Positions 4,113-37,263 of a stretch of DNA of 37,263 nucleotides are shown here, in pieces. Where the stretch lies: IMG/VR virus record IMGVR_UViG_2778261172_000006, positions 1 through 37,263 of that record. The stretch is one strand, 5' to 3'. Position numbers and translations under genes: made by a program. The notes below the pieces were generated by a model. The model was not told where the DNA came from. It did not search any database and saw nothing but the letters and a program-made list of their open reading frames with translations. Source of the DNA: a virus. Its lineage: Duplodnaviria; Heunggongvirae; Uroviricota; Caudoviricetes. Numbering within the stretch: the first letter of the stretch is position 1; the number at the start of each line of letters is the position of its first letter.

Positions 4113-4316
4113 ATGAACAAAAAGACCTGGTTTCGCGCATACATGTGGGCGCTGGTATGCGTCCTCGTTTCTCTCATTCTGTATGCAGGACTACTCCCCC
4201 GAATGATTTCATCAGACAGCTCCTTCCTGGTATTGCTGGGCATTTTCATTGCCATGCTGTACCCGGCAGGCGTTGTTCGCCTTTTCAGTAAGTACATCAA
4301 GGAAATCAAACAATGA
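4113..4316 (+). CDS. small two-TM membrane protein (67 aa)
   Basis: Two hydrophobic helices (YMWALVCVLVSLILYAGLL and FLVLLGIFIAMLYPAGVV); stop overlaps the SPFH gene start (ATGA at 4313). Confidence 0.55.
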   Translation: MNKKTWFRAYMWALVCVLVSLILYAGLLPRMISSDSSFLVLLGIFIAMLYPAGVVRLFSKYIKEIKQ

Positions 4317-5143
4317 AGAAATTCAAACTCTTTCAGATTATCCCGCTTTTTGCCGCCATCCTGCTGGCTGGTTGCGATCGCGTTGAGCCAGGTAATGTGG
4401 GCATCAAAGTCAACAAACTGGGCGACGACAAAGGCGTCGGCGAAGTGGTCGGCGTTGGCCGCTACTGGACTGGCTGGAATACAGAGGTTTACATCTTCCC
4501 AACCTTCAAACAAATGAAGACCTACGATGAGCCGTTCAGCTTCCAGATGAGTGACGGCACAACCATCGGCTATCACATCGGCGTGGCTTACAAGGTTGAT
4601 CCATCCAAAGTTACCACAGTGTTTCAGACCTACCGCAAAGGCGTGGATGACATTACCGACACTGACCTGCGCCAGAAGATCGCCGACGCACTCAACCGAC
4701 TGGCCAGCAAAATGACCACCGATAAATTCATCGACGGTGGCAAGTCTGAACTGCTGGATTCAGCACTTAAAGATATTCAGGCAGAAATGACACCCATCGG
4801 CATTCAGGTAATGAGCCTCTCTTATGTCGGTAAACCGGAATACCCGCCAACCGTGATCGACAGCATTAATGCCAAAGTCACAGCGAACCAGAAAACCCTG
4901 CAACGCGAACAGGAAGTAAAACAGCGCGAAGCAGAAGCCAACATGTTGCGCGCAGAAGCTGCCGGACAGGCTGATGCCATTCGCACAAAAGCCCAGGCTG
5001 AAGCCGACGCCATTCGTTTACGCGGTGAAGCTCTGCGCCAGAATCCCGGCGTTATGGAGCTGGAAGCAATCAACAAATGGAACGGCACGCTGCCGCAATA
5101 CATGACCAGCAATACCGCTGTTCCGTTTGTTCCGGTGAAGTAA
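4313..5143 (+). CDS. SPFH/band-7 (prohibitin-like) domain lipoprotein
   Basis: N-terminal signal with lipobox LLAGC; central SPFH-like core; C-terminal Ala/Glu/Gln/Arg-rich coiled-coil (QREQEVKQREAEANMLRAEAAGQADAIR...). Confidence 0.75.
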   Translation: MKKFKLFQIIPLFAAILLAGCDRVEPGNVGIKVNKLGDDKGVGEVVGVGRYWTGWNTEVYIFPTFKQMKTYDEPFSFQMSDGTTIGYHIGVAYKVDPSKVTTVFQTYRKGVDDITDTDLRQKIADALNRLASKMTTDKFIDGGKSELLDSALKDIQAEMTPIGIQVMSLSYVGKPEYPPTVIDSINAKVTANQKTLQREQEVKQREAEANMLRAEAAGQADAIRTKAQAEADAIRLRGEALRQNPGVMELEAINKWNGTLPQYMTSNTAVPFVPVK

Positions 5144-6185: not shown

Positions 6186-9008
6186 ATGACGACAGAGTAC
6201 ATCAGGGACTGGCAACAACCGCGCCACGCAGTAGGGCGTGAAGGAACGGGGATCCCCACTCCTGAATCCGCGCTTTCCTCCTGGCTGGATGCCTACCGGG
6301 CAGAGAACGAGCGCCACCAGGAAAAGGCTGATGCGGCGTTCTCCGCCACGCCACTGGGCAACCTGATTAATAAAAGCCTGGACGCACAGGAAAAACAGGA
6401 CAAAACCATCACGCTGGCAGGAGAAGCCAGAAGACAGACACGCGGCACGGTGGATGAAGCCATGGCCTCGCTGCGCCTGCTGCCGTCCTATCTGCGCGAT
6501 CCGCTTATTCGCCACCTCTCCTTCCTGCGCAAAAAACAGGAAGCCGATCTCCGGAAAGAAAAAAATGCCTGGCAGGCAGAAAACTATGCACGCGGAACCC
6601 TGCGCAAGATATTCGTTCGCATTAACCGTGCCGACAGTCGCTGGCTGACACCGGGTTATCGCTCCCTCGCCGGACGTGAGCGTCTGGATGATTTGCTTTA
6701 CCTGCCGCAGCTCAATAAACACCAGATACAGACACTGGCCACCATGACAGCGGCAATGTTCAGCAGCACCTTCGAAACACTCTGTGATGGTTTCGGTGCC
6801 AAAGATGGCGAGCTGACCATGGAGGTGGCACTGAAGGCGTATCAGATGCTGGCCCGCATGGCGTTACACCTGCACACCGTGCCGCCGCATTACGAAGCAC
6901 TGACAACAGACAAAGACCGGAGGAACGAACCGGACACGGAGCTGCTGCCGGGCGCAATCCTTCGTCTGACCTGTGCGGAATGGTGGAAACGCAAACTGTG
7001 GCTGTTACGTTGCGAGTGGCGGGAAGAACAACTCCGTGCCGCCTGTCTGGTTTCCAGAAAAACATCGCCCTATCTGAGCCAGGACGCGTTAAGCGAGTTT
7101 CGCGCACAGCGCGAGAAAACACGCGATTTTCTGAAAAGTTTCATGCTGGAAAACGAAGACGGGTTCACGATTGATCTCGAGACAGTGTATTACGCGGGAG
7201 TAAGTAACCCGGTTCACCGTAAGGCAGAAATGATGGCCACCATGAAGGGGCTGGAACTTCTGGCCGAAGCCCGTGGCGACAAAGCGGTGTTTCTGACTGT
7301 CACCTGCCCGTCAAAATACCACGCCACAACGGAGAACGGTCATCCGAACCCCAAATGGAACGGGGCCACCATGCGCGACTCCAGCGATTACCTGGTTAAC
7401 ACGTTTTTTGCGGCGGTCCGCAAAAAACTGAACCGCGACGGTCTTCGCTGGTATGGCATCCGCACGGTGGAGCCTCACCATGACGGCACCGTGCACTGGC
7501 ATATGATGGTCTTTGCTCATCCGGAAGAAATCGACAGCATCGTGGCCATCACCCGCGATATTGCCATTCAGGAAGACCGCCACGAGCTGGGTGATGATAT
7601 TACCCCACGCTTTAAGGTGGAGTATGTCGACGGCTCAAAAGGCACACCAACCAGCTACATCGCCACCTACATCGGAAAGAACCTGGACAGCCGCGCCGTG
7701 GATGGCATCGACCCGAAAACGGGCAAGCCACGCGTTGACCACGAAACAGGAAAATCAATGACCGAGAGCGTGGAACGCGCCATCGGCTGGGCGCGCCTTC
7801 ACCGGGTCCGCCAGTTCCAGTTCTTTGGCATTCCCTCCCGTCAGGTGTGGCGTGAACTCCGCCGCCTTGCCAGCCAGATGGCACGCAACCCGGAAGGCCC
7901 GCAACGGCTGAAGAATGACGCAATGGATGCGGTACTCGCTGCCGCCGATGCCGGGTGTTTTGCCTCCTACATTGAAAAACAGGGCGGCGTACTTGTTCCA
8001 CGCAAAGACTACCTGATTCGCACCGCCTACGACCTCGCAGATGAGCCGAACGATTACGGCGAACAGAGCGTACAGATTTACGGGATCTGGTCACCACTCA
8101 TCGGGGAATCCTCCCGTGTGTGCACGCACCCGGATAACTGGAAGCTGGTAAGACGTAAACCGGAAGCGGAAGACAACACCCGCGAAAATGGTTTTGACCT
8201 TCAGGGCGGCCCTGCCGCCCCTTGGACTCGTGGCAATAACTGTCCCCGTGTACAGGAAACGGACAACAACGGGACAGAACAGCCGGAAGAACGGCCAGCA
8301 CCGTGGCCGCAGCTTCCTGACGGCATTGAAGTGAACGAATGGATGCGCTCACTGAAACGGCACGAACGCCGGGCGCTGATGCGTTCGCTTCGTGACAAAC
8401 AGGCAAAAAACAGCAGTGATGAAATGCAGAGCTGGACACAGAGCCGCAAACAGCAGCGGCCTTTGCCTGATAACCACGAATTACTCGCTAGAGAATGGCG
8501 GGAGTCTGCTGAATCTCTCGGCCTGCATATCGGTGAACAACAAATGCAGCACCTGTTACGGGGCGGCAGTCTGTACGTTGACGGCAGCATCATTGCACCG
8601 CAGGGATTTGAAATTGTACGCAAACCGGATACCCGCCCGGACAGCCGAATCACGCAGCTCTGGCAACGCCTGAGCCGTAATCACGGCGTAAGCAGCACGG
8701 AGATCCGCCATAACCCGGTCGCCAGCTATCTGGAACAGCTGGGGGCATCAGACCCTGAAGCCGCCGCACGCCTGGCATCCACACTTCAGCAGGACCAGAA
8801 CACCATGAAAACACCCGTTACCGTGCTTTCTGACATGCTGCGCGCCATCCGCGACGCAGAGCACGCACAGAGAATCAGTGAAACCACTGAACGCGCCCGC
8901 CGCAAAGCAGACCTGCTGCGGGGTGGCCTGACCAGTGGAAACAAAAAACAGACAGAAACGGGATTCACAAATCCCGTAAATGAGCAAAAAACGCGCCGCG
9001 ATATATGA
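6186..9008 (+). CDS. A: replication initiation endonuclease, P2 gpA family, with long C-terminal extension
   Basis: 940-aa ORF; HxH-type motif (TVHWHMMVF) and P2 A-like core around residues 330-600; position between early genes and the cargo region. Confidence 0.88.
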   Translation: MTTEYIRDWQQPRHAVGREGTGIPTPESALSSWLDAYRAENERHQEKADAAFSATPLGNLINKSLDAQEKQDKTITLAGEARRQTRGTVDEAMASLRLLPSYLRDPLIRHLSFLRKKQEADLRKEKNAWQAENYARGTLRKIFVRINRADSRWLTPGYRSLAGRERLDDLLYLPQLNKHQIQTLATMTAAMFSSTFETLCDGFGAKDGELTMEVALKAYQMLARMALHLHTVPPHYEALTTDKDRRNEPDTELLPGAILRLTCAEWWKRKLWLLRCEWREEQLRAACLVSRKTSPYLSQDALSEFRAQREKTRDFLKSFMLENEDGFTIDLETVYYAGVSNPVHRKAEMMATMKGLELLAEARGDKAVFLTVTCPSKYHATTENGHPNPKWNGATMRDSSDYLVNTFFAAVRKKLNRDGLRWYGIRTVEPHHDGTVHWHMMVFAHPEEIDSIVAITRDIAIQEDRHELGDDITPRFKVEYVDGSKGTPTSYIATYIGKNLDSRAVDGIDPKTGKPRVDHETGKSMTESVERAIGWARLHRVRQFQFFGIPSRQVWRELRRLASQMARNPEGPQRLKNDAMDAVLAAADAGCFASYIEKQGGVLVPRKDYLIRTAYDLADEPNDYGEQSVQIYGIWSPLIGESSRVCTHPDNWKLVRRKPEAEDNTRENGFDLQGGPAAPWTRGNNCPRVQETDNNGTEQPEERPAPWPQLPDGIEVNEWMRSLKRHERRALMRSLRDKQAKNSSDEMQSWTQSRKQQRPLPDNHELLAREWRESAESLGLHIGEQQMQHLLRGGSLYVDGSIIAPQGFEIVRKPDTRPDSRITQLWQRLSRNHGVSSTEIRHNPVASYLEQLGASDPEAAARLASTLQQDQNTMKTPVTVLSDMLRAIRDAEHAQRISETTERARRKADLLRGGLTSGNKKQTETGFTNPVNEQKTRRDI
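8956..8980. repeat. 25-bp palindromic element, copy 1 (AAACGGGATT-CACA-AATCCCGTAAA)
   Basis: 8-bp inverted repeat ACGGGATT/AATCCCGT with 4-nt spacer, inside the 3' end of A. Confidence 0.7.
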
Positions 9009-9028
9009 AGCGCGCACAAAACAGGCAA

Positions 9029-9053
9029 AAACGGGATTTCAGAATCCCGTAAA
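9029..9053. repeat. 25-bp palindromic element, copy 2 (AAACGGGATT-TCAG-AATCCCGTAAA)
   Basis: Near-identical copy 73 bp downstream of copy 1, 32 bp upstream of the parM-like start. Confidence 0.7.
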
Positions 9054-9084
9054 CGATTAATTAATCAACATAAGGAAAAGCGAC

Positions 9085-10044
9085 ATGAAAATTTGTATCG
9101 ACGACGGCTCCACCAACATCAAGCTGGCATGGACTGAGAACGGCGAACGCCGCAACGCCATCAGCCCGAACAGCTTCAAGTCGGAATGGTCTGCGCCGTT
9201 CGGTGGCACGCAGCCCGCGAACTACATGCTTGATGGCGTGCGCTATGGTTTTGATCCGGTCAGCGATCGCTTTGTCCAGACGACCGACACGCAATACCAG
9301 TACAGCGATGTGAATGTCATTGCCATTCATCACGCGCTGGTCAAATCAGGCATCACGCCACAGGAGGTGGATGTGGTTGTCACCCTGCCACTGAGCGAGT
9401 ATTTCGACACAAACGCACAGCCGGACATGGCCAACATCAACCGCAAAAAAGCGAACGTTATGCGCCCGGTGGAGTACCAGAACGGCGAAGCATTCACTAT
9501 CCGTAACGTGCGGGTTATGCCTGAATCCATTCCGGCTGGCTTTAAGGCACTGGCTGACATGAGTCCGTTTGAATCCCTGCTGATTGTGGATTTAGGCGGA
9601 ACCACGCTGGATGTGGCAAAGGTTCAGGGGCAACTGGCAGGTATCAGCCAGGTGTTTTGCGATCCACACGTAGGCGTTTCCCTGATGGTCGATGCCGTGC
9701 TGTCGGTGATGGCCGCTAACGGTATGCGTACCAGTCACCACATCGCCAATACCATTATCGAACATCGCCATGATGAAGCCTGGTTGCGCCAACACATCCA
9801 CAATGACGCGCATTACGCCAGCCTGATGGCGGTTATTCGTGAAAAGGAAGAAACACTGAAACAACGCGTGATCCGCGCGCTGGCGGGTTTTTCGGGTTAC
9901 GGACGGGTGATGGTTGTCGGTGGCGGGGCGGAGATTGTGGCACCCGCTATCCGCGAAGCCTGCGGAGTTAATGCGACTTTCATCGCGGACGGGGTGCCAC
10001 AGTTTGCTCTGGTTAATGGGCTGTACGCAATGGACAAGGAGTAA
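9085..10044 (+). CDS. parM: ParM/StbA-like actin-type segregation ATPase
   Basis: 319 aa; N-terminus MKICIDDGSTNIKLAW, SDVNVIAIHHAL, VMPESIPAG, DLGGTTLD and VVGGGAE match remembered plasmid R1 ParM motifs along the whole length. Confidence 0.85.
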   Translation: MKICIDDGSTNIKLAWTENGERRNAISPNSFKSEWSAPFGGTQPANYMLDGVRYGFDPVSDRFVQTTDTQYQYSDVNVIAIHHALVKSGITPQEVDVVVTLPLSEYFDTNAQPDMANINRKKANVMRPVEYQNGEAFTIRNVRVMPESIPAGFKALADMSPFESLLIVDLGGTTLDVAKVQGQLAGISQVFCDPHVGVSLMVDAVLSVMAANGMRTSHHIANTIIEHRHDEAWLRQHIHNDAHYASLMAVIREKEETLKQRVIRALAGFSGYGRVMVVGGGAEIVAPAIREACGVNATFIADGVPQFALVNGLYAMDKE

Positions 10045-10048
10045 ACCA

Positions 10049-10363
10049 ATGACGACACCAACCAGACGGATAAGTTTCTATCTGAAGCCCGCCGCCGTCA
10101 ATAGTGAACGGAAGGCGTGTAATTACCTCGACAGCCTGCCAGCCTCTGAACGCAGCCGCGCGCAACGCGCGGCCTTTCTGGCCGGGCTGGCACTCATAAA
10201 ACGCGATCCTGCATTTGCCTATTGGTTGGCCGAATGGCCGGAAGAAGGAGCTGCGCCAGCAAAGAATAATATTCAGAGTAAATATGCCAGCACACCTGCC
10301 ACCGGAAGCAATCACAGCACTAGCGAGATAAGAAAGAACATTCAGTCATTTTTCCCGGAGTGA
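10049..10363 (+). CDS. parR: ParR/StbB-like centromere-binding adaptor
   Basis: ATG at 10049 with AAGGAG RBS; RRISFYLKP...CNYLDSLPASERSRAQRAAFLAGLAL parallels R1 ParR (RRTIAFKLNP...CDTLDSIPQGERSRLNRAALTAGLAL). Confidence 0.75.
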   Translation: MTTPTRRISFYLKPAAVNSERKACNYLDSLPASERSRAQRAAFLAGLALIKRDPAFAYWLAEWPEEGAAPAKNNIQSKYASTPATGSNHSTSEIRKNIQSFFPE

Positions 10364-10382: not shown

Positions 10383-10814
10383 ATGGCAACTATTCCCAAA
10401 AAATGGTTACAACGCAAAATCGCAGACCTTGAATCGTGTCGTGAAGACATCCCATTTGGCCTTGATGAAAACGATCACAATATGTTAATCGCACTGAAAA
10501 TCGCACTCACATCGCTGGAAGCGAAACCTGTTGCATGGACTGATGATGAGGAACTGCGTGATGTCAAGCAGTATGGTTTCGGTGAGATATTTCAGTGTCC
10601 GCCAGATAAATACGCGGATCCGCGCCGTGTTATCCCTATGTATCAAGAGCCGCCAGCGCCAGCAGTACCAGATGGGCTGGTTAGAGCGGTGCGTTTCTAT
10701 GAACAGGTTAAGCGTGAAAATCCGCCAGCCGAAACCGGAGCATGGAAAGACGCTGTTGACTGGGTGCTCAAAGAGGCCTGCCAAGTTGTAAACACTGGCA
10801 TCAAAGGAGACTGA
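10383..10814 (+). CDS. hypothetical protein (143 aa)
   Basis: ATG with GGAGAGG RBS; contains motif IALKIALTSLEAKPVAW. Confidence 0.55.
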   Translation: MATIPKKWLQRKIADLESCREDIPFGLDENDHNMLIALKIALTSLEAKPVAWTDDEELRDVKQYGFGEIFQCPPDKYADPRRVIPMYQEPPAPAVPDGLVRAVRFYEQVKRENPPAETGAWKDAVDWVLKEACQVVNTGIKGD

Positions 10815-10815
10815 T

Positions 10816-11025
10816 ATGGCTATTGCCGCAAGTTACACCATGCATCTCTATTGTGATTGCCTCCAGTGTACAGATGGCAAATATAAGTCGCCAGACTTCG
10901 GTGAGTATATAGGTACGTCATGGGCTGGCTGTGCAAAAGAGGCGCGCAAGGATGGCTGGCGAATAAGCAAAGACAAAACGCGTGCTTTTGCGCCCGGGCA
11001 TAAAGTTTTGAGGATTAACAAATGA
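10816..11025 (+). CDS. hypothetical small Cys-rich protein (69 aa)
   Basis: ATG 1 nt after upstream stop; CDCLQC...C pattern. Confidence 0.5.
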   Translation: MAIAASYTMHLYCDCLQCTDGKYKSPDFGEYIGTSWAGCAKEARKDGWRISKDKTRAFAPGHKVLRINK

Positions 11026-11282
11026 CCACTTTAACCGACAAAGAACTGATTAAAGAAATCAAAGAGCGCATAGGCAGCCTAGACGTGAGAGACAATATTG
11101 AACGCCGTGCTTATGAAATTGCTCTGGTATCGCTGGAAGCAGAGCCAGTAGCATGGATGCATGTAAATAACGGCATCGGAATACCAGCAATAACAAGGAG
11201 TAAAGAGGTTGCAGAGAGTTGGTTATCAAAAGGCTGGTATGTCCAACCCTTACATCTAGCCCAGCCTGCATCAAAGCTATAG
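11022..11282 (+). CDS. hypothetical protein (86 aa)
   Basis: ATGA overlap with upstream ORF; shares motif IALVSLEAEPVAW with the 10383 ORF. Confidence 0.5.
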   Translation: MTTLTDKELIKEIKERIGSLDVRDNIERRAYEIALVSLEAEPVAWMHVNNGIGIPAITRSKEVAESWLSKGWYVQPLHLAQPASKL

Positions 11283-11322: not shown

Positions 11323-11349
11323 TGCACAATAGTGCACAAATTTGCACAA
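11323..11349. repeat. three TGCACAA heptamers phased at exactly 10 bp (11323, 11333, 11343)
   Basis: Direct reading; a fourth copy at 11415-11421 and a GGATCCGT direct repeat at 11393-11411 lie nearby. Confidence 0.7.
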
Positions 11350-11848
11350 TTTTTTTGAACGACTTTTTGCCCTTCCGGCCCGCGGGGCGACTGGATCCGT
11401 CAAGGATCCGTGCGTGCACAAAAAAACGCGCTTTTTCTGCGCGCAGGTGACGGGGGAACAGCCCGCGTTTCAGGGGGTAAATAGCATTCCCTGAACGATG
11501 TCGCAGCGACACAACAGAATGGCTGTCTTTCTCACGCTGAGCGTAAAAAAGACGTGAGGGCTTTTGATTTGATGGGGTGGCAGATAAGGCCGTCAAAATC
11601 GCACTGAGGCGGCGAGAACATGCAGTCAGCGCAGTGGGATTGCGTAAGAGTCTGACCGTCGATGATGGAAATAAGCAGGAAAGCGTCGTGAAATTATCTG
11701 ACTGATACAGGAGCTGGAGAGTCGGGGCATAAATTTTTTATGCCCCGGCGAAGCAGCAGACAAGCGAAGCGCGTCAGCGATACGGCACCTTGCCGACCAT
11801 ACTTCATAAGTGCAAAATACGAGCAAAGAAATCAATGGAGGCTGTCTT

Positions 11849-12373
11849 ATGGTCATTAATTACAAGCAGTTAAGAGAAAAACGGGAGCAGGTAAAGGAGA
11901 GCTTTCGCCGCAATGAAGATCTGACCCCGCTTGTACGCCTTGCCCAGGGCATTGTTGACGCTTATGAAATCTCGCTGGAGCTGCCATCACAGACCTGGAC
12001 AGATAGCGACGGTAATCGCCAGCATTACATTTCATGCGGACTGGAAGCAGCCGAAGGATTTCGCAGAATGCCTTTATCCCAGATCCCTGCCGCAACCCCC
12101 AAAGCAAGAGGCAGCAATGATGAGCGAAAACTGACTTTCAGCATTGAGACAGTGGTTGACGACACACCTGGCGAAGTCGCGTTCGTGCACACTCCTGTTT
12201 CGATCGCAATGTATAACGATGAAATACAGGTTCGCGTTAATAATAATATCGTGCCACTTAAAGAAGGTAATTCACCCTACACCACCGTTTGTGAAGCCAT
12301 TCAATATTACGTTCTCTCTGAAATTGATAATCTCAAGCCTGACGGCACCCAGAAAATGGTTCAACTCTGGTAA
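11849..12373 (+). CDS. hypothetical protein (174 aa) between cos-proximal region and portal gene
   Basis: ATG at 11849 with GGAGG 8 nt upstream; convergent with Q and ending in a strong hairpin terminator. Confidence 0.55.
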   Translation: MVINYKQLREKREQVKESFRRNEDLTPLVRLAQGIVDAYEISLELPSQTWTDSDGNRQHYISCGLEAAEGFRRMPLSQIPAATPKARGSNDERKLTFSIETVVDDTPGEVAFVHTPVSIAMYNDEIQVRVNNNIVPLKEGNSPYTTVCEAIQYYVLSEIDNLKPDGTQKMVQLW

Positions 12374-12379
12374 AAAGGA

Positions 12380-12404
12380 CAGCCCCATCACGGGGCTGTT
12401 TTTT
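12380..12404. terminator. bidirectional intrinsic terminator between the 174-aa ORF and Q
   Basis: CAGCCCC-ATCA-CGGGGCTG hairpin flanked by AAAAA upstream and TTTTTT downstream. Confidence 0.65.
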
Positions 12405-13434
12405 CATCAAGAAGAGCATAAGAGTTAAAACGGATCACCTCTTCGCCAAGCCAGTCATTGATATGCTTCATGGCCTCCATGACGGGCATCAGCTCGTTAA
12501 TTGCGTAAACCCGCGCGGCCTTCTCCACATCACCAAACGCACTTTTTTCACCCGGCATCGCCCCCATCAGTTGCGGCGGAACGCGGTGCGCAGCCAGCAC
12601 GTCATCACGGGATGCCGCCTTAACATTCATGAACTCATCTTTTGCGGTGATCTGCTGGAACGGCAAAATTTGCACACCTTCTTTGCCCCCGTTGGGCGCA
12701 TGAATGAGCACGTTTTTAAACGCACCACCACCACGTGCACCCTGTAACGTTTCTTTCAGGGAGTCCATGCTTTCGCGGTTTACCTGTGCTGCACCGATGT
12801 AGATGATGCACCCGGCGTGGGATCCGTTGTCGTAATACAGTTTTCTGAACATGTCCGCCGAATGAGACAGGCTGGCCGAGAGTAATGCGCCGAGATATTC
12901 CGGCATGCCGTAGATTTCCTGGTTAATATCCGGATTCATCAGGTGGCACACTTTGCCAGGGCGAAACTGGAACGCGTCCTTGCCATCCTGCACATACCAC
13001 CATGATTCAAGATCGCTTCCGCGTCGCATGTATTTCGCCAGTGCGTGCCGTAATTTAAGCGGTTCGCCGAGCATATTGCTTCGAAGCTCAAGGAATGCGT
13101 TACCGAACACAAACCAGTCCAGCGCCAGCGCCGAGAAATCCTGCCGGGAAAGCAGCGGGTGCGGGATGTAGCAACCGAGTAATACATTGCGCTTAAAGTA
13201 AAGCGCAGACTGATGCCAGGACGTTTGCCGGGCAGCTCTCGCCAGACCGTACCAGTCCACCGGGGTTTCATACCACCGCCCGTTATCAGCACAGTACATA
13301 TTGTCCAGCAGGTCATGCCCGGTCAGGCGATAAGGACCATCAAATGTGAATGCACTGAGCGATGATTCTTTCCTGAGCGCATCAGCGAGATCAATGCGTG
13401 AACTCATGCGCACTTTTTTATTTTTTCTGCTCAT
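12388..13434 (-). CDS. Q: portal protein (P2 gpQ family)
   Basis: 348-aa ORF; start overlaps P stop on the minus strand; P2 Q-like sequence and position next to terminase. Confidence 0.9.
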   Translation of the reverse strand: MSRKNKKVRMSSRIDLADALRKESSLSAFTFDGPYRLTGHDLLDNMYCADNGRWYETPVDWYGLARAARQTSWHQSALYFKRNVLLGCYIPHPLLSRQDFSALALDWFVFGNAFLELRSNMLGEPLKLRHALAKYMRRGSDLESWWYVQDGKDAFQFRPGKVCHLMNPDINQEIYGMPEYLGALLSASLSHSADMFRKLYYDNGSHAGCIIYIGAAQVNRESMDSLKETLQGARGGGAFKNVLIHAPNGGKEGVQILPFQQITAKDEFMNVKAASRDDVLAAHRVPPQLMGAMPGEKSAFGDVEKAARVYAINELMPVMEAMKHINDWLGEEVIRFNSYALLDEKTAP

Positions 13435-25913: not shown

Positions 25914-26447
25914 ATGATGCACTTAAAAAATATTACAGCTGGCAACCCTAAAACAAAAGAGCAATACCAGCTAACGAAACAATTTAACATCAAATGGCTT
26001 TATACAGAGGATGGGAAAAACTGGTATGAGGAACAAAAGAACTTTCAGCCTGATACGTTGAAAATGGTCTATGACCACAACGACGTTATTATTTGTATTG
26101 AAAAGGATGTTTCAGCAATTAATCCAGAAGGCGCAAGCGTCGTTGAGGTTCCTGATATTACAGCAAATCGCCGGGCTGATATTTCGGGTAAATGGATGTT
26201 CAAAGATGGCGTAGTGATAAAGCGAACTTATACCGAGGAGGAACAGAGGCAGCAGGCAGAGAATGAAAAGCAAAGCCTGTTGCAACTTGTCAGGGATAAA
26301 ACCCAGCTATGGGACTCACAGCTACGGCTGGGCATCATTTCCGACGAGAATAAACAAAAATTAACCGAGTGGATGCTCTATGCGCAGAAGGTCGAATCCA
26401 CAGACACCTCCAGCCTGCCAGTAACGTTTCCCGAACAACCTGAATGA
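25914..26447 (+). CDS. G: tail fibre assembly chaperone (P2 gpG / Tfa family)
   Basis: 177 aa starting MMHLKNITAGNPKT; directly follows H. Confidence 0.85.
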   Translation: MMHLKNITAGNPKTKEQYQLTKQFNIKWLYTEDGKNWYEEQKNFQPDTLKMVYDHNDVIICIEKDVSAINPEGASVVEVPDITANRRADISGKWMFKDGVVIKRTYTEEEQRQQAENEKQSLLQLVRDKTQLWDSQLRLGIISDENKQKLTEWMLYAQKVESTDTSSLPVTFPEQPE

Positions 26448-26450
26448 GAC

Positions 26451-26480
26451 AAGGCCCGCTATCGGGCCTTAATTTTTATT
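26451..26480. terminator. bidirectional terminator between the convergent tfa genes
   Basis: AAGGCCCG-CTAT-CGGGCCTT hairpin followed by AATTTTTATT. Confidence 0.65.
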
Positions 26481-27003
26481 CAGGCTTTTGTGGCCATTCA
26501 GGATTTGCCGTATCCACACGGCTGACCAGAACACTGTAGCGTTCCCATGACTCCAGTCGTGCGCGCTCCTCATCCGTCGCCATATTCAGCCTGACAGCGC
26601 GTTCCAGTGGCTGAATAACGCTTTCTGCTTCGGAAAGTAACGCAGCCTTTTGTGATTCGGCCTGTTGTTGCTGTTCATCAGCCGTATAAATCCGTTTAAC
26701 CACAGCTCCGTCCTTAAACATCCACTTTCCTGAATCATCAGCGCGGCGGTTGGCTGTAATATCGGGAACCTCAACGACGCTAAAGCCTTCAGGGTTAAGC
26801 GTAGAGGCATCCTTGGTGATAGCGACAATAATATTATTTTCATCGTAAACAATCTTTATTGTGTCTGGCTGAAAGTTTTTCACTTCCTCATACCAGTTTT
26901 TTCCGTCTTCGGACCACAACCAGATAACGTCAAAATTCTTTGTTAATTCGTACTGCTCCAGTGTTTTAGCATTACCCGTTTTTATATTCTTTAAGTGCAT
27001 CAT
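26476..27003 (-). CDS. alternative tail fibre assembly chaperone (Tfa', inverse orientation)
   Basis: 175 aa, N-terminus [14 protein letters not shown] paralogous to G; minus strand inside the invertible segment. Confidence 0.85.
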
Positions 27004-27004
27004 A

Positions 27005-27985
27005 CTAAACGCTCGCTACATTATACCAGGTGCCATTTATATACTTTTGAACGGGTCTGTAATAAACGCCCGCTATATTATCGGCAGAGTTGGACCCTGT
27101 ATCCTGAACATTAATACCAGACAATACATGACCTGACGGGCACTGGAAATTCCATGTTTGCCAGTTGTTCACTCCATAATATTGCTGTGAACCAAGTCGA
27201 ACATCTTTCACATATCTGGAATCAAAATTGCCATAGTTGCCGGGAATAACTTGCGAGCCGCAAAGCCAGTTCCCGTTATTATCCATGTACGCCTGACCAT
27301 CGGTACCATTGGCTGTCCTTGAGTTATTAATCATGTAGATGCCAAATTGCTTATTCCCCAATCCACCTATCATGAACTTGCGGTCGGCGTGATTCTGGCG
27401 AAGCAACGCCTGAGCGCTATCAGTGTTAACTATATTTTTCCCAAAGATAGCGTTGTTATCGCGCATCTGAATCCACATACCATTACTGCTGTTAATAGCA
27501 AAACGGTCTGAAAGTGTCTCCCCTGAAACATTAAGACCACGCCCCATCGAAACAGCGCCAGTAGCGTTATTAATCCATAATGGCCTTAATCCGTTATAAG
27601 TCCCCATGTTGTCACCGGAGTTTGTCAACATGAAGTATGTATTTGAACCATCATTACGAATAAAGAATCCGTAATTACCATAAGCAATACGTAGGCCGTT
27701 TGCTGATTTTGATATGACTTCGCCATTTACAATGGCATTGACAAGAACATACAAAGCATCCCATTTAAGATTCATCAGGTCTTTTGTTGTGGTGCTTTGT
27801 TTGCTTCTCCATTTGAAATATTCATTGCCGTTGTCGCCTGTTTCAAACCACATGAATGAATCAGTATCGCTGTCGGCATCATTTTTAAAACCAATCTTCG
27901 CCCAGTCGGTATTTCGAATCCATGCAAGAATTGAGTCGTTTTCAAAAGTAAGTCCACCGGACAAGATATCGCCTGTCTTTTGCAC
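27005..27985 (-). CDS. alternative tail-fibre C-terminal cassette (no start of its own; reading frame stays open through the right crossover site to 28027)
   Basis: Frame upstream of the track start reads [15 protein letters not shown], matching EYLGLQETVN at the H crossover; C-terminus [11 protein letters not shown] paralogous to the H C-terminus. Confidence 0.8.
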
Positions 27986-28035: not shown

Positions 28036-28089
28036 TGGCCGTTTCCGGCCTGCATGGCATGATTTGCGCTTTTGGACGGGAGATTCAGC

Positions 28090-28677
28090 GTGCTGATTGG
28101 CTATGTAAGGGTATCAACAAATGACCAGAATACAGACCTGCAACGAAACGCTCTTGTTTGTGCAGGATGTGAACAAATATTTGAAGATAAATTAAGCGGG
28201 ACAAAGACAGACCGACCGGGATTAAAACGCGCTTTAAAGCGCCTTCAAAAAGGTGACACGCTGGTTGTCTGGAAACTGGATCGCCTCGGGCGAAGCATGA
28301 AACATCTGATTTCTCTCGTCGGGGAACTACGGGAGCGAGGAATTAATTTTCGCAGTCTGACCGACAGCATAGATACATCTTCTCCAATGGGGCGTTTTTT
28401 CTTCCACGTGATGGGTGCCCTGGCTGAAATGGAACGTGAATTAATTGTTGAACGTACACTGGCCGGACTGGCGGCAGCACGCGCACGGGGGCGCACAGGC
28501 GGACGTCGACCGAAGCTGACAAAAGAACAGCATGAGCAAATAGCAAGGCTAATCAAAAACGGGCACGACAGAAAACAACTGGCAATAATTTACGGCATTG
28601 GTATATCGACGATTTATCGTTACCACCCCGCAGGAGAATCAAGGGGAACAATTGAGAAGAGTCAGGAAACAAAATAA
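28090..28677 (+). CDS. serine DNA invertase (Gin/Pin/Cin/Hin family)
   Basis: GTG start after GGGAG; VLIGYVRVSTNDQNTDLQRNALVCAGCEQIFEDKLSGT... is near-identical to the remembered Mu Gin sequence, including the catalytic Ser region and C-terminal HTH. Confidence 0.95.
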   Translation: MLIGYVRVSTNDQNTDLQRNALVCAGCEQIFEDKLSGTKTDRPGLKRALKRLQKGDTLVVWKLDRLGRSMKHLISLVGELRERGINFRSLTDSIDTSSPMGRFFFHVMGALAEMERELIVERTLAGLAAARARGRTGGRRPKLTKEQHEQIARLIKNGHDRKQLAIIYGIGISTIYRYHPAGESRGTIEKSQETK

Positions 28678-36256: not shown

Positions 36257-36883
36257 ATGAAACAAAAATCAAAGTCTGCTGCCATTGCTGCTATTGCTAC
36301 AGCTCTGACAGCATCACTGGCTCCGGTGCCAGCTAAAAGCACGATACTACCAACAACAGTTATTGAATCCGTGACACACGCCAGAGTGGTTTCAATGCTT
36401 ACATTTGAGCATCATGATGGTCAGGTGTTTCTGCCTCTTGAAGAAGCTATTGAATATATCAACGGGCTGAATGACAACATGCGTGCCGCGCTCAATGCAG
36501 TCATTGAAGAACGACAGAACAGAGGCAAGGGAGCTCTGTTTGCTGACAAAACCGCAAAAATCATAAAAATATGCGAAGAGTCACTTAAGCAGCACAGCCG
36601 TGTTAAAGAGGCTGTCAAAATTGTAATGGATCCGGATAACCTGGCAAAAATGTATCCGGATAGCATGGAGCAAAGAATCGCCTATCGCAATAAACTGGTT
36701 CGTTTTGGTCGGGCAATTGCGCAGGGAGAGTTTATCGCTCGTGATGCCATCAACGCCATCAAACGAAGCACCGCACCAGACAAAACGACCAGCCTGGGCA
36801 ATACGCTGTCTGACGGAAATGTGAAAGCAATGATTATTGCCGAGCATAAAAACATGGGACTCCCGGCACCGGAGTTTTCCTGA
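36257..36883 (+). CDS. hypothetical protein (208 aa), upstream partner of YafO-like gene
   Basis: ATG at 36257 with GGAG RBS; Ala-rich hydrophobic N-terminal segment AAIAAIATALTASLAPVPA; stop overlaps downstream start (ATGA). Confidence 0.55.
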   Translation: MKQKSKSAAIAAIATALTASLAPVPAKSTILPTTVIESVTHARVVSMLTFEHHDGQVFLPLEEAIEYINGLNDNMRAALNAVIEERQNRGKGALFADKTAKIIKICEESLKQHSRVKEAVKIVMDPDNLAKMYPDSMEQRIAYRNKLVRFGRAIAQGEFIARDAINAIKRSTAPDKTTSLGNTLSDGNVKAMIIAEHKNMGLPAPEFS

Positions 36884-37263
36884 TGGCAAGCAAAGTAAGC
36901 ATTCATAAAGATGTTGAATACCAGGACATTGCAAAAGTTTACGGAAAGGCTCTGGAAAACTGGTTAAATACCGGTGTTCTCCCTGACAGATTCGGCAATG
37001 AAGGGCAGTGGGAAGATAACGCAAGATTATGTGGTTCGTTTGTATATAAATTACACATAAGACTACCGTCAGAACCACCATGGAAGAAAAGCAAAGCCCA
37101 AATAGACAGAACTTCAAATATCTATCTGGTTTATACAAGGCACTGGATGGATTATGACAATATACAAATCATCAGCATCATGGCCCCAGATGCTCACGAA
37201 AAAGCCAAAACTTCTTTCATGGCTGAGCTGGAAAGACGGGCAGAAGAATTCCAGAACTCATAA
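36883..37263 (+). CDS. YafO-like toxin (type II TA ribosome-dependent mRNA interferase family)
   Basis: 126 aa; GVLPDRFG, HIRLP, SNIYLVYTRH and IISIMAPDAHEKA parallel remembered E. coli YafO motifs (GVLPDIFG, HIHL, EAHLVYCQG, LIAILKPEPHKLA). Confidence 0.65.
   Translation: MASKVSIHKDVEYQDIAKVYGKALENWLNTGVLPDRFGNEGQWEDNARLCGSFVYKLHIRLPSEPPWKKSKAQIDRTSNIYLVYTRHWMDYDNIQIISIMAPDAHEKAKTSFMAELERRAEEFQNS

Follow-up and report, generated by a model that had tools for sequence, protein, structure and literature searches.

Results

A partition gene pair between gpA and Q

The window analysed here is the whole stretch of 37,263 nucleotides (nt) of IMG/VR record IMGVR_UViG_2778261172_000006, and the element in it is a P88-like P2-like prophage (genus Xuanwuvirus, Peduoviridae). 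Between gpA, which encodes the rolling-circle initiator of replication, and Q this prophage carries a two-gene module, parMR, preceded by two direct repeats (Table 1). An earlier note on this DNA had described two open reading frames (ORFs) of 319 and 104 amino acids (aa) as an actin-type partition pair, and both were present as described, with parR starting after a gap of 4 nt from parM. Judged from the sequence evidence presented below, the module very probably forms a functional segregation system of the ParMRC type (type II).

Identity of ParM and ParR

The 319-aa protein matched the Pfam profiles StbA_N (1.8e-82, residues 1-157) and ParM C-terminal domain (3.9e-68, residues 159-316), both far beyond the curated cut-offs, and aligned end to end with the solved R1 ParM (1mwk, E 9.1e-93, residues 2-316). 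The nearest plasmid ParMs were approx. 52-53% identical to it over the full length, and since a ParM of solved structure matches end to end with 53% identity, the predicted fold can be regarded as certain. In the alignment with R1 ParM the phosphate-binding and adenosine motifs IDDGSTNIK, MPESIPAG, DLGGTTLD and GGGAE were kept, and across 10 prophage ParMs the nucleotide-binding motifs (the first one as IDDGST) were unchanged.

The 104-aa protein matched Pfam PF10784 (Plasmid_stab_B, 2.6e-26, residues 6-66) and, weakly, ParR/StbB of pB171 (2jd3, E 0.004). Both proteins belong to families annotated as 'partition protein' (PHROG 691 for ParM and PHROG 2515 for ParR), and their RefSeq names are 'plasmid segregation protein ParM' and 'plasmid partitioning/stability family protein'. 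The profile searches thereby confirmed the ParM/ParR identity proposed in the earlier note. The full-length match to the R1 proteins that it had described held for ParM, but in ParR it was limited to the N-terminal approx. 60 residues and a short C-terminal motif.

In ParR a predicted ribbon-helix-helix-type domain is followed by a variable linker and a conserved C-terminal motif (Table 1). All prophage ParRs ended in a motif of the form (R/K)xN(I/A)xx(F/L)FP, and a similar xNAxxMF was seen in the plasmid ParRs. The C-terminal tail of R1 ParR is the part that binds ParM. With 104 aa the protein was shorter than the aligned plasmid and prophage ParRs (116-138 aa), and the P88-type ParR was without the second conserved helical segment found in the other aligned lineages.

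Repeats upstream of parM

The upstream repeats listed in the earlier note proved to be real. The repeat finder returned two 42-nt direct repeats with starts 73 nt apart, each holding a palindrome with 8-bp arms, and the last approx. 65 nt of gpA overlapped the first repeat. The palindrome ACGGGATT-N4-AATCCCGT occurred at these two sites only in the 37-kb window, where 0.11 chance matches were expected. The start-to-start spacing was 73 nt in 59 of 61 related loci, and a block spacing of 72-73 nt was also found in a Plesiomonas phage (L007) and between the iteron blocks of two plasmid parC loci (L013 and L014). Among 68 distinct upstream sequences the best-conserved intergenic stretch was 9057-9084, with a mean major-allele frequency of 0.98.

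The other prophage lineages had candidate centromeres as well. In the Plesiomonas prophage two 26-nt repeats lay 72 nt apart, each with a CGGG-N10-CCCG dyad, and the Hafnia prophage had a single dyad similar to the Plesiomonas one. The Serratia and Enterobacter prophages showed inverted arms of 14-20 nt that were 26-28 nt apart. Related plasmid loci had the classical arrangement, with short iterons in two blocks that were 72-73 nt apart; the phage repeats formed no iteron array and had one 20-bp dyad per block.

Two observations on natural variants were made. In the IMG/VR locus L102 a 73-bp deletion fuses both 42-nt repeats into one, so that the native stop of gpA and one half of the candidate centromere are lost, giving a natural single-repeat variant. 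Common arm changes in palindrome 2 (9031-9050), A1 to G and C18 to T, keep G-U pairs in a plus-strand RNA hairpin and break the DNA dyad. They make an RNA-level function a candidate, e.g. in processing or stabilising the transcript between gpA and parM.

Conservation of the module together with gpA

At a coverage of at least 80%, the gpA type of the window was found in 1321 E. coli genomes and ParMR in 1277 (approx. 97% linkage). In an alignment of ten relatives the nucleotide identity was 95-100% from the 3' end of gpA through the repeats and the whole of parM. It dropped to approx. 66-70% from approx. 35 nt into parR, was 40-50% in the ParR linker and reached noise further downstream. The genes after parR varied from phage to phage, and in sister phages the region was unrelated. 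Because identity breaks there and the following genes differ, the variable gpA-Q hotspot starts inside parR, downstream of parM. The earlier note had placed the pair as cargo between gene A and cos in a P2-like prophage. Its position between gpA and Q was confirmed, but it is not sporadic cargo: since it is approx. 97% linked to gpA, conserved contiguously with the gpA 3' end and found in the same place in four other genera, parMR is not loose cargo like old or tin and belongs to the core of the gpA replication block. Protein identities, motifs, conservation, linkage and position are all direct observations.

The recombination breakpoint approx. 35 nt into parR separates two old allele classes of this gene. 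The comparison covered 10049-10363 of the window and the same region in loci L002-L004, L015-L020 and L024-L103. Synonymous divergence (dS) between the classes was 0.7-0.9 in the N-terminal domain, as against 0.05-0.17 for the adjacent parM, and among 76 sampled loci approx. 53 were of class 2 and approx. 23 of class 1. Common to both classes were an identical N-terminal strand, PTRRISFYLKPAAV, and a C-terminal tail of the form xNIxxxFP(E/K/D). The ratio of nonsynonymous to synonymous substitution rates (dN/dS) was 0.14-0.35 for the N-terminal domain of ParR and 0.04-0.13 for ParM, which is under strong purifying selection. The ParM ORF was intact, with its full 319 aa, in 80 of 80 IMG/VR loci, these being the best-scoring 80 of 202 and leaning to intact genes. 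Two phage records (520873 and 503458) were considered as ParM pseudogenes or as evidence for an episome and were rejected; gpA and the portal gene are fragmented in them too, which marks low-quality assemblies.

These data bear on the idea that the module is an inert relic, left by an old recombination between plasmid and phage and kept through its linkage to gpA. Some truncated database entries and the loss of one repeat in L102 would fit such decay. The low dN/dS of ParM, the intact ORFs of the sample, the preservation of all catalytic and interaction motifs and the same position kept while structural proteins fell to approx. 30% identity stand against it, and we give the relic almost no weight.

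Prevalence and homologues in other genera

The parMR module was matched in 14 phage records, among them P88, the Citrobacter phage phiSM and P884B11. Near-identical modules were present in 1304 of 5426 complete E. coli genomes (approx. 24%). A near-identical copy in E. coli EcPF14 is chromosomal, and its prophage has the order integrase, repressor, Cox, early genes, gpA, ParM, ParR and small ORFs, followed on the opposite strand by Q (portal) and P (terminase).

A single-protein contig scan with a module protein returned just 3 near-identical loci, and the wider distribution came from a search for homologous proteins together with their gene contexts. The earlier note had suggested a survey of related prophages at the A-Q junction, and there ParMR was found in the same place, between gpA and the portal gene, in P2-like prophages of Hafnia, Plesiomonas, Serratia and Enterobacter. 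Their ParMs were 62% (Hafnia and Plesiomonas), 59% (Serratia) and 54% (Enterobacter) identical to the ParM of the window. All examined homologues with 54-62% identity lay in the gpA-portal interval of a P2-like prophage, whereas the four examined homologues at or below 53% were in plasmid or integrative and conjugative element (ICE) contexts with Rep3, ParA or Tra genes.

In the prophages of other genera ParM was 54-62% identical, as against 27-47% for portal, terminase and capsid; the Hafnia prophage, for example, had 62% for ParM, 34% for gpA, 31% for portal and 28% for capsid. In E. albertii a block of gpA (95%) and ParM (99%) was joined to a structural module of only approx. 30% identity. 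Neighbour-joining analysis of the sequences with known context gave two prophage ParM groups with 100% bootstrap support each, and the union of both groups against the plasmid ParMs had a moderate support of 59%.

Two of these loci had features of their own. On a Dickeya chromosome (L011, CM001975.1, ParM at 8001-8957) a ParM/ParR pair with 49% identity lay in an ICE-like region with TraG_N, TraU and an integrase, which is another integrative element with type II partition. The Plesiomonas contig L007 (WEKF01000002.1, 32,167 bp) has approx. the length of one P2-like genome and ends 142 bp past the integrase gene. The attachment site seems to be where the assembly breaks, and integrated and excised forms occurring side by side could account for this.

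Transcription of the module

In a consensus scan no sigma-70-like promoter was detected at 8700-9100 or between gpA and parM, and none was detected between gpA and parM in L007 either. In L008 and L009 the sole matches overlapped the start codon. The same scan found a 10/12 sigma-70 promoter between the iteron blocks of plasmid parC L014, which served as positive control. A manual search for sigma-70 hexamers around 8960-9084 gave weak matches only.

The terminator scan detected no plus-strand terminator between gpA and parM, and the matches inside parM were weak. The first convincing one after gpA, a hairpin with T-run at approx. 11332, likely ends the gpA-parMR transcript, and up to this point the genes are tightly packed and co-directional. 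We infer that transcription of the early operon with gpA runs on through parMR, because the genes are co-directional and tightly spaced and neither promoter nor terminator was found between gpA and parM. The two repeat hairpins were also considered as minus-strand terminators and rejected, as no leftward unit ends there and the terminator of the Q-P operon is at 12379-12399.

Expression from the quiescent prophage is what two further explanations would need. In the first of them, prophage ParR or ParM disturbs related phages, or plasmids with similar centromeres, via incompatibility or mis-positioning. The locus adjoins the P2 defence hotspot, which holds old and tin in P2 (PMC9122126), and two old ParR classes beside a near-identical parM form a pattern that can accompany conflict. 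Against such competition or exclusion, PADLOC models gave no match for ParM, ParR or the four downstream ORFs, and the module is conserved and linked to gpA instead of variable. The DNA-reading N-terminal strand and the repeats are common to both ParR classes, so that specificity has not diversified; the nearest plasmid ParMs are only approx. 53% identical with unrelated iterons, and the lysogen expression required for defence is not supported. We regard this role as quite improbable.

In the second, the module is a host-directed 'fitness' moron that is expressed from the prophage and acts on a chromosomal locus or on host DNA segregation. It was listed as a putative fitness factor for phiSM of Citrobacter rodentium (PMC6456863), and a prevalence of 24% among complete E. 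coli genomes would suit a benefit to the host. An own promoter was however not detected, the module lies within the lytic early block and is no moron-like cassette bounded by a promoter and a terminator of its own, and it travels with gpA across genera and different structural modules, which points to a phage function. A host-directed role therefore appears highly improbable.

Chromosomal and circular copies

Among the 1444 places in the complete E. coli genomes at which the module was found, 1442 were chromosomal and 2 on plasmids. In PLSDB a single phage-sized circle with ParMR was found among 72,556 records (NZ_CP148288.1, 34,461 bp); it is complete and has kept the integrase. As a control, a terminase search found P2-like circular 'plasmids' that have no ParMR, pENTAS02 of Enterobacter soli and pESL4.2 of Pantoea dispersa. 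Because P2-like phages without ParMR give similar circles, the phage-sized circles are no sign of a ParMR-dependent state; they are excised or replicating phage caught by assembly. The early region of the window encodes only a tyrosine integrase, a helix-turn-helix (HTH) repressor, a DUF4761 protein, an SPFH protein, an Ash-family protein and gpA, and no plasmid-type Rep was found among these proteins.

One explanation offered in the earlier note was a stable episomal state. In such a facultative phage-plasmid, ParMRC would keep the phage as a stable low-copy extrachromosomal prophage, e.g. if attB is missing or already taken. In its plasmid relatives ParMRC serves as a bona fide stability system, the 34.5-kb circle NZ_CP148288.1 was deposited as a plasmid, and the phage-plasmid D6 has a StbA-type ParM (48% identical). 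Furthermore KS14, a P2-like Burkholderia phage, is kept as a plasmid prophage (PMC3091744). If ParMR served plasmid lysogeny, however, phage-sized circles would be expected to be common in complete genomes, and they are not, with 2 of 1444 places on plasmids in 1304 genomes. ParMR-less circles exist as well, the integrase is kept, and no promoter was detected in the centromere region. The sole initiator is gpA in a repressor-controlled early operon, whereas KS14 carries RepB and ParA (PMC3091744). We concluded that a stable plasmid-prophage state is not supported, and a facultative one seems doubtful to us.

In a broader version approx. a quarter of E. coli P2-like phages would be facultative phage-plasmids that could last as multi-generation, gpA-driven low-copy episomes, a heritable carrier state, when integration is blocked, or ParMRC would raise lysogenisation by bringing copies into both daughter cells. 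This we hold for unlikely and more doubtful still. If true, an actin-like cytoskeleton would be routine in the life cycle of a very common E. coli prophage family.

Other features of the element

Downstream of parR three small ORFs form the variable hotspot cargo and probably share a transcript with parR. Two of them (10383-10814 and 11022-11282, both on the plus strand) have an N-terminal domain in common (PHROGs 660, 5117 and 60; motif SLEA-x-PVAW) and appear to be paralogues. Between the hotspot terminators and the portal gene, near the expected cos, lies a 187-aa ORF that is missing from the otherwise 99.9%-identical module neighbourhood in EcPF14.

In the early operon the gene for an SPFH/Band 7 protein is flanked by small early genes and the Ash-family gene, and it is missing at that place in the EcPF14 annotation. 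The segment 25914-28677 resembles an invertible tail-fibre segment, with a serine invertase, an alternative fibre C-terminus and two tail-fibre assembly chaperones on opposite strands. A YafO-family toxin gene follows gpD at the right window edge and probably belongs to the host flank or to a toxin-antitoxin pair at the end of the prophage.

Table 1. Features of the parMR locus and of the surrounding prophage, with positions in the window.
Feature	Position	Strand	Length	Basis or remark
SPFH/Band 7 protein	4313-5143	+	276 aa	Pfam 7.6e-31; early operon
gpA replication endonuclease, rolling-circle initiator	6186-9008	+	940 aa	Pfam Phage_GPA 5.7e-130
Repeat 1, candidate parC-like	8942-8983		42 nt	inside gpA 3' end; palindrome ACGGGATT-CACA-AATCCCGT at 8958-8977
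Repeat 2, candidate parC-like	9015-9056		42 nt	intergenic; palindrome ACGGGATT-TCAG-AATCCCGT at 9031-9050
Shine-Dalgarno-like AAGGA	9072-9076	+		upstream of parM, in the best-conserved stretch 9057-9084; read from sequence
parM, actin-fold ATPase of type II partition	9085-10044	+	319 aa	Pfam, 1mwk, PHROG 691
parR, predicted centromere-binding adaptor	10049-10363	+	104 aa	ATG at 10049; PF10784, PHROG 2515
ParR N-terminal domain, ribbon-helix-helix type	10049-10234	+	codons 1-62	followed by variable linker
ParR conserved C-terminal motif EIRKNIQSFFPE	10325-10360	+		alignment with prophage and plasmid ParRs
Three small ORFs, variable hotspot cargo	10383-11282	+	143, 69, 86 aa	unknown-function PHROGs only
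Terminator-like hairpin and T-run	11332-11357	+		first convincing plus-strand one after gpA (terminator scan)
ORF before portal gene	11810-12373	+	187 aa	unknown-function PHROG 5091
Portal gene	12388-13434	-		downstream of parMR module
Tail-fibre assembly chaperone	25914-26447	+		tail-fibre segment
Tail-fibre assembly chaperone	26476-27003	-		tail-fibre segment
Alternative fibre C-terminus	27005-27985	-		tail-fibre segment
Serine invertase	28072-28677	+		Resolvase and HTH_7; tail-fibre segment
YafO-family type II toxin	36883-37263	+		right window edge, after gpD

Discussion

A proposed role in the transient extrachromosomal phase

In the ParMRC system of plasmid R1 the adaptor-bound centromere, the capture of filament ends by the ParR tail and the pushing apart of the bound molecules are established mechanics. 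By analogy, dimers of the phage ParR would bind to both dyad repeats around the gene A end (8942-9056), the C-terminal peptide of ParR would capture the ends of ATP-dependent ParM filaments, and the growing filaments would push ParR-bound phage circles apart. ParM and ParR would be made while the genome is a free circle under gpA rolling-circle replication, be it between infection and integration or following induction and excision, and would be silent in the quiescent, repressed integrated prophage. We would limit expression to the free-circle phase because the cassette appears to be part of the gpA early operon and a promoter was not detected in the centromere region. The role of the module would then be to spread or segregate transient circles, either for efficient replication and packaging or so that the phage is not lost from dividing cells before integration.

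The distribution speaks against plasmid lysogeny and favours a function in a transient extrachromosomal phase. Of the other roles raised in the earlier note, genome positioning during replication fits better than an episome, and exclusion, with no PADLOC match, is unsupported. The binding of ParR to the repeats, the co-transcription with gpA, the timing and the benefit are what we infer, and for the whole model of an early-operon ParMRC acting on transient free circles, timing and role included, we estimate a probability of roughly 0.5.

Several points weigh against this model. A ParMRC spindle needs at least two centromere-bearing copies, and its benefit in a lytic burst of approx. 100 circles is not obvious. 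Binding of ParR at the repeats is proposed from position and architecture only. Among 88 close relatives the palindrome arms were no better conserved than their flanks (0.93-0.95 vs 0.95-0.98), and some common variants disrupt the dyad; this conservation test is limited by the shallow divergence and by repeat 1 being coding as well. The promoter scan is a crude consensus search, and a weak or non-sigma-70 promoter, and hence expression in the lysogen, may be possible. The 80 IMG/VR loci are a sample biased towards intact genes, and the protein database holds truncated ParM clusters with hundreds of members (P0006, P0010 and P0017), which may be partial sequences from contig ends or real decay.

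Relation to earlier work and implications

Rousset et al. 2022 surveyed the gpA-gpQ locus in the P2-like phages of E. coli and found a putative partition system, 'perhaps' for plasmid maintenance, in approx. a quarter of them (PMC9122126); in the phiSM paper the partition module is a putative fitness factor (PMC6456863). We found no functional test of the P2-like parMR module in the literature. The identity of the module and the plasmid idea have thus already been annotated or published and are not new. New here are the selected module of the gpA block that crosses genera, the hotspot boundary in parR, the undetected promoter and the argument from distribution.

The module matters for its prevalence, approx. 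24% among the complete E. coli genomes, and for its presence in the P2-like prophages of several other enterobacterial genera. That the gpA-Q 'defence hotspot' starts inside parR matters for the mining of defence systems based on hotspots. If the module segregates or positions transient circles, it would offer a tractable E. coli model of a phage-encoded actin-like cytoskeleton, and the principle known from SXT/R391 ICEs, that an integrative element with rolling-circle replication requires active partition in its excised form, would extend to phages.

Comparison with known systems

The closest likeness is to ParMRC of plasmid R1 and par2 of pB171. The order of repeats, parM and parR is the same, ParM is 52-53% identical over the full length with all nucleotide-binding motifs, and ParR has the PF10784 N-terminal domain and a C-terminal tail of the xNxxxx(F/L)F type. 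As in plasmid parC, there are two repeat blocks approx. 72-73 nt apart. The phage module differs in being part of an integrated phage and not of a plasmid, and the phage ParMs form groups found only in prophage contexts. Each phage block is a single 20-bp dyad, whereas the plasmid blocks are arrays of short direct iterons; a promoter lies between the blocks in the plasmid control and none was detected in the phage. The phage ParR is also shortened, to 104 aa from the 126-138 aa of the plasmid proteins, without the second helical segment.

P1, N15, D6 and KS14 are likewise temperate phages with plasmid-type partition genes, and the structural genes of KS14 are P2-like. They live as plasmids with a dedicated replicon, however, whereas the phage in the window has an integrase and no plasmid Rep.

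The prophage CGP3 of Corynebacterium glutamicum is integrated and encodes an actin-like filament former and a DNA-binding adaptor (AlpAC/alpS), and its adaptor binds upstream of the operon. On excision AlpAC is induced at an early stage, and the phage DNA needs it to replicate efficiently (Donovan et al. 2015, PMC4446434). CGP3 is, in contrast, a large unrelated prophage of a Gram-positive host with another gene order and adaptor family, and AlpC is a distant actin-like protein whereas the phage protein is a close ParM. The function has been studied in CGP3, and the phage module is known from its sequence.

SrpMRC of the SXT/R391 ICEs is a type II partition system that is conserved in the family and whose transcription is tied to the excision operon alone. 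It gives stability to the transient excised form and is needed for this form only; the excised ICE undergoes rolling-circle replication, which starts at oriT and is carried out by the relaxase (Carraro et al. 2015, PMC4489591). SrpMRC belongs to an ICE and not to a phage, SrpR is not homologous to ParR, in contrast to the true ParR of the phage, and the function was shown for SrpMRC, that of the phage module being our proposal. Like these ICEs, the phage is an integrative element with a type II partition locus and an HUH-type nickase, by which it would replicate as a rolling circle once excised, and SrpMRC is transcribed from an upstream activation-linked operon and not from the centromere, as we propose for parMR behind gpA.

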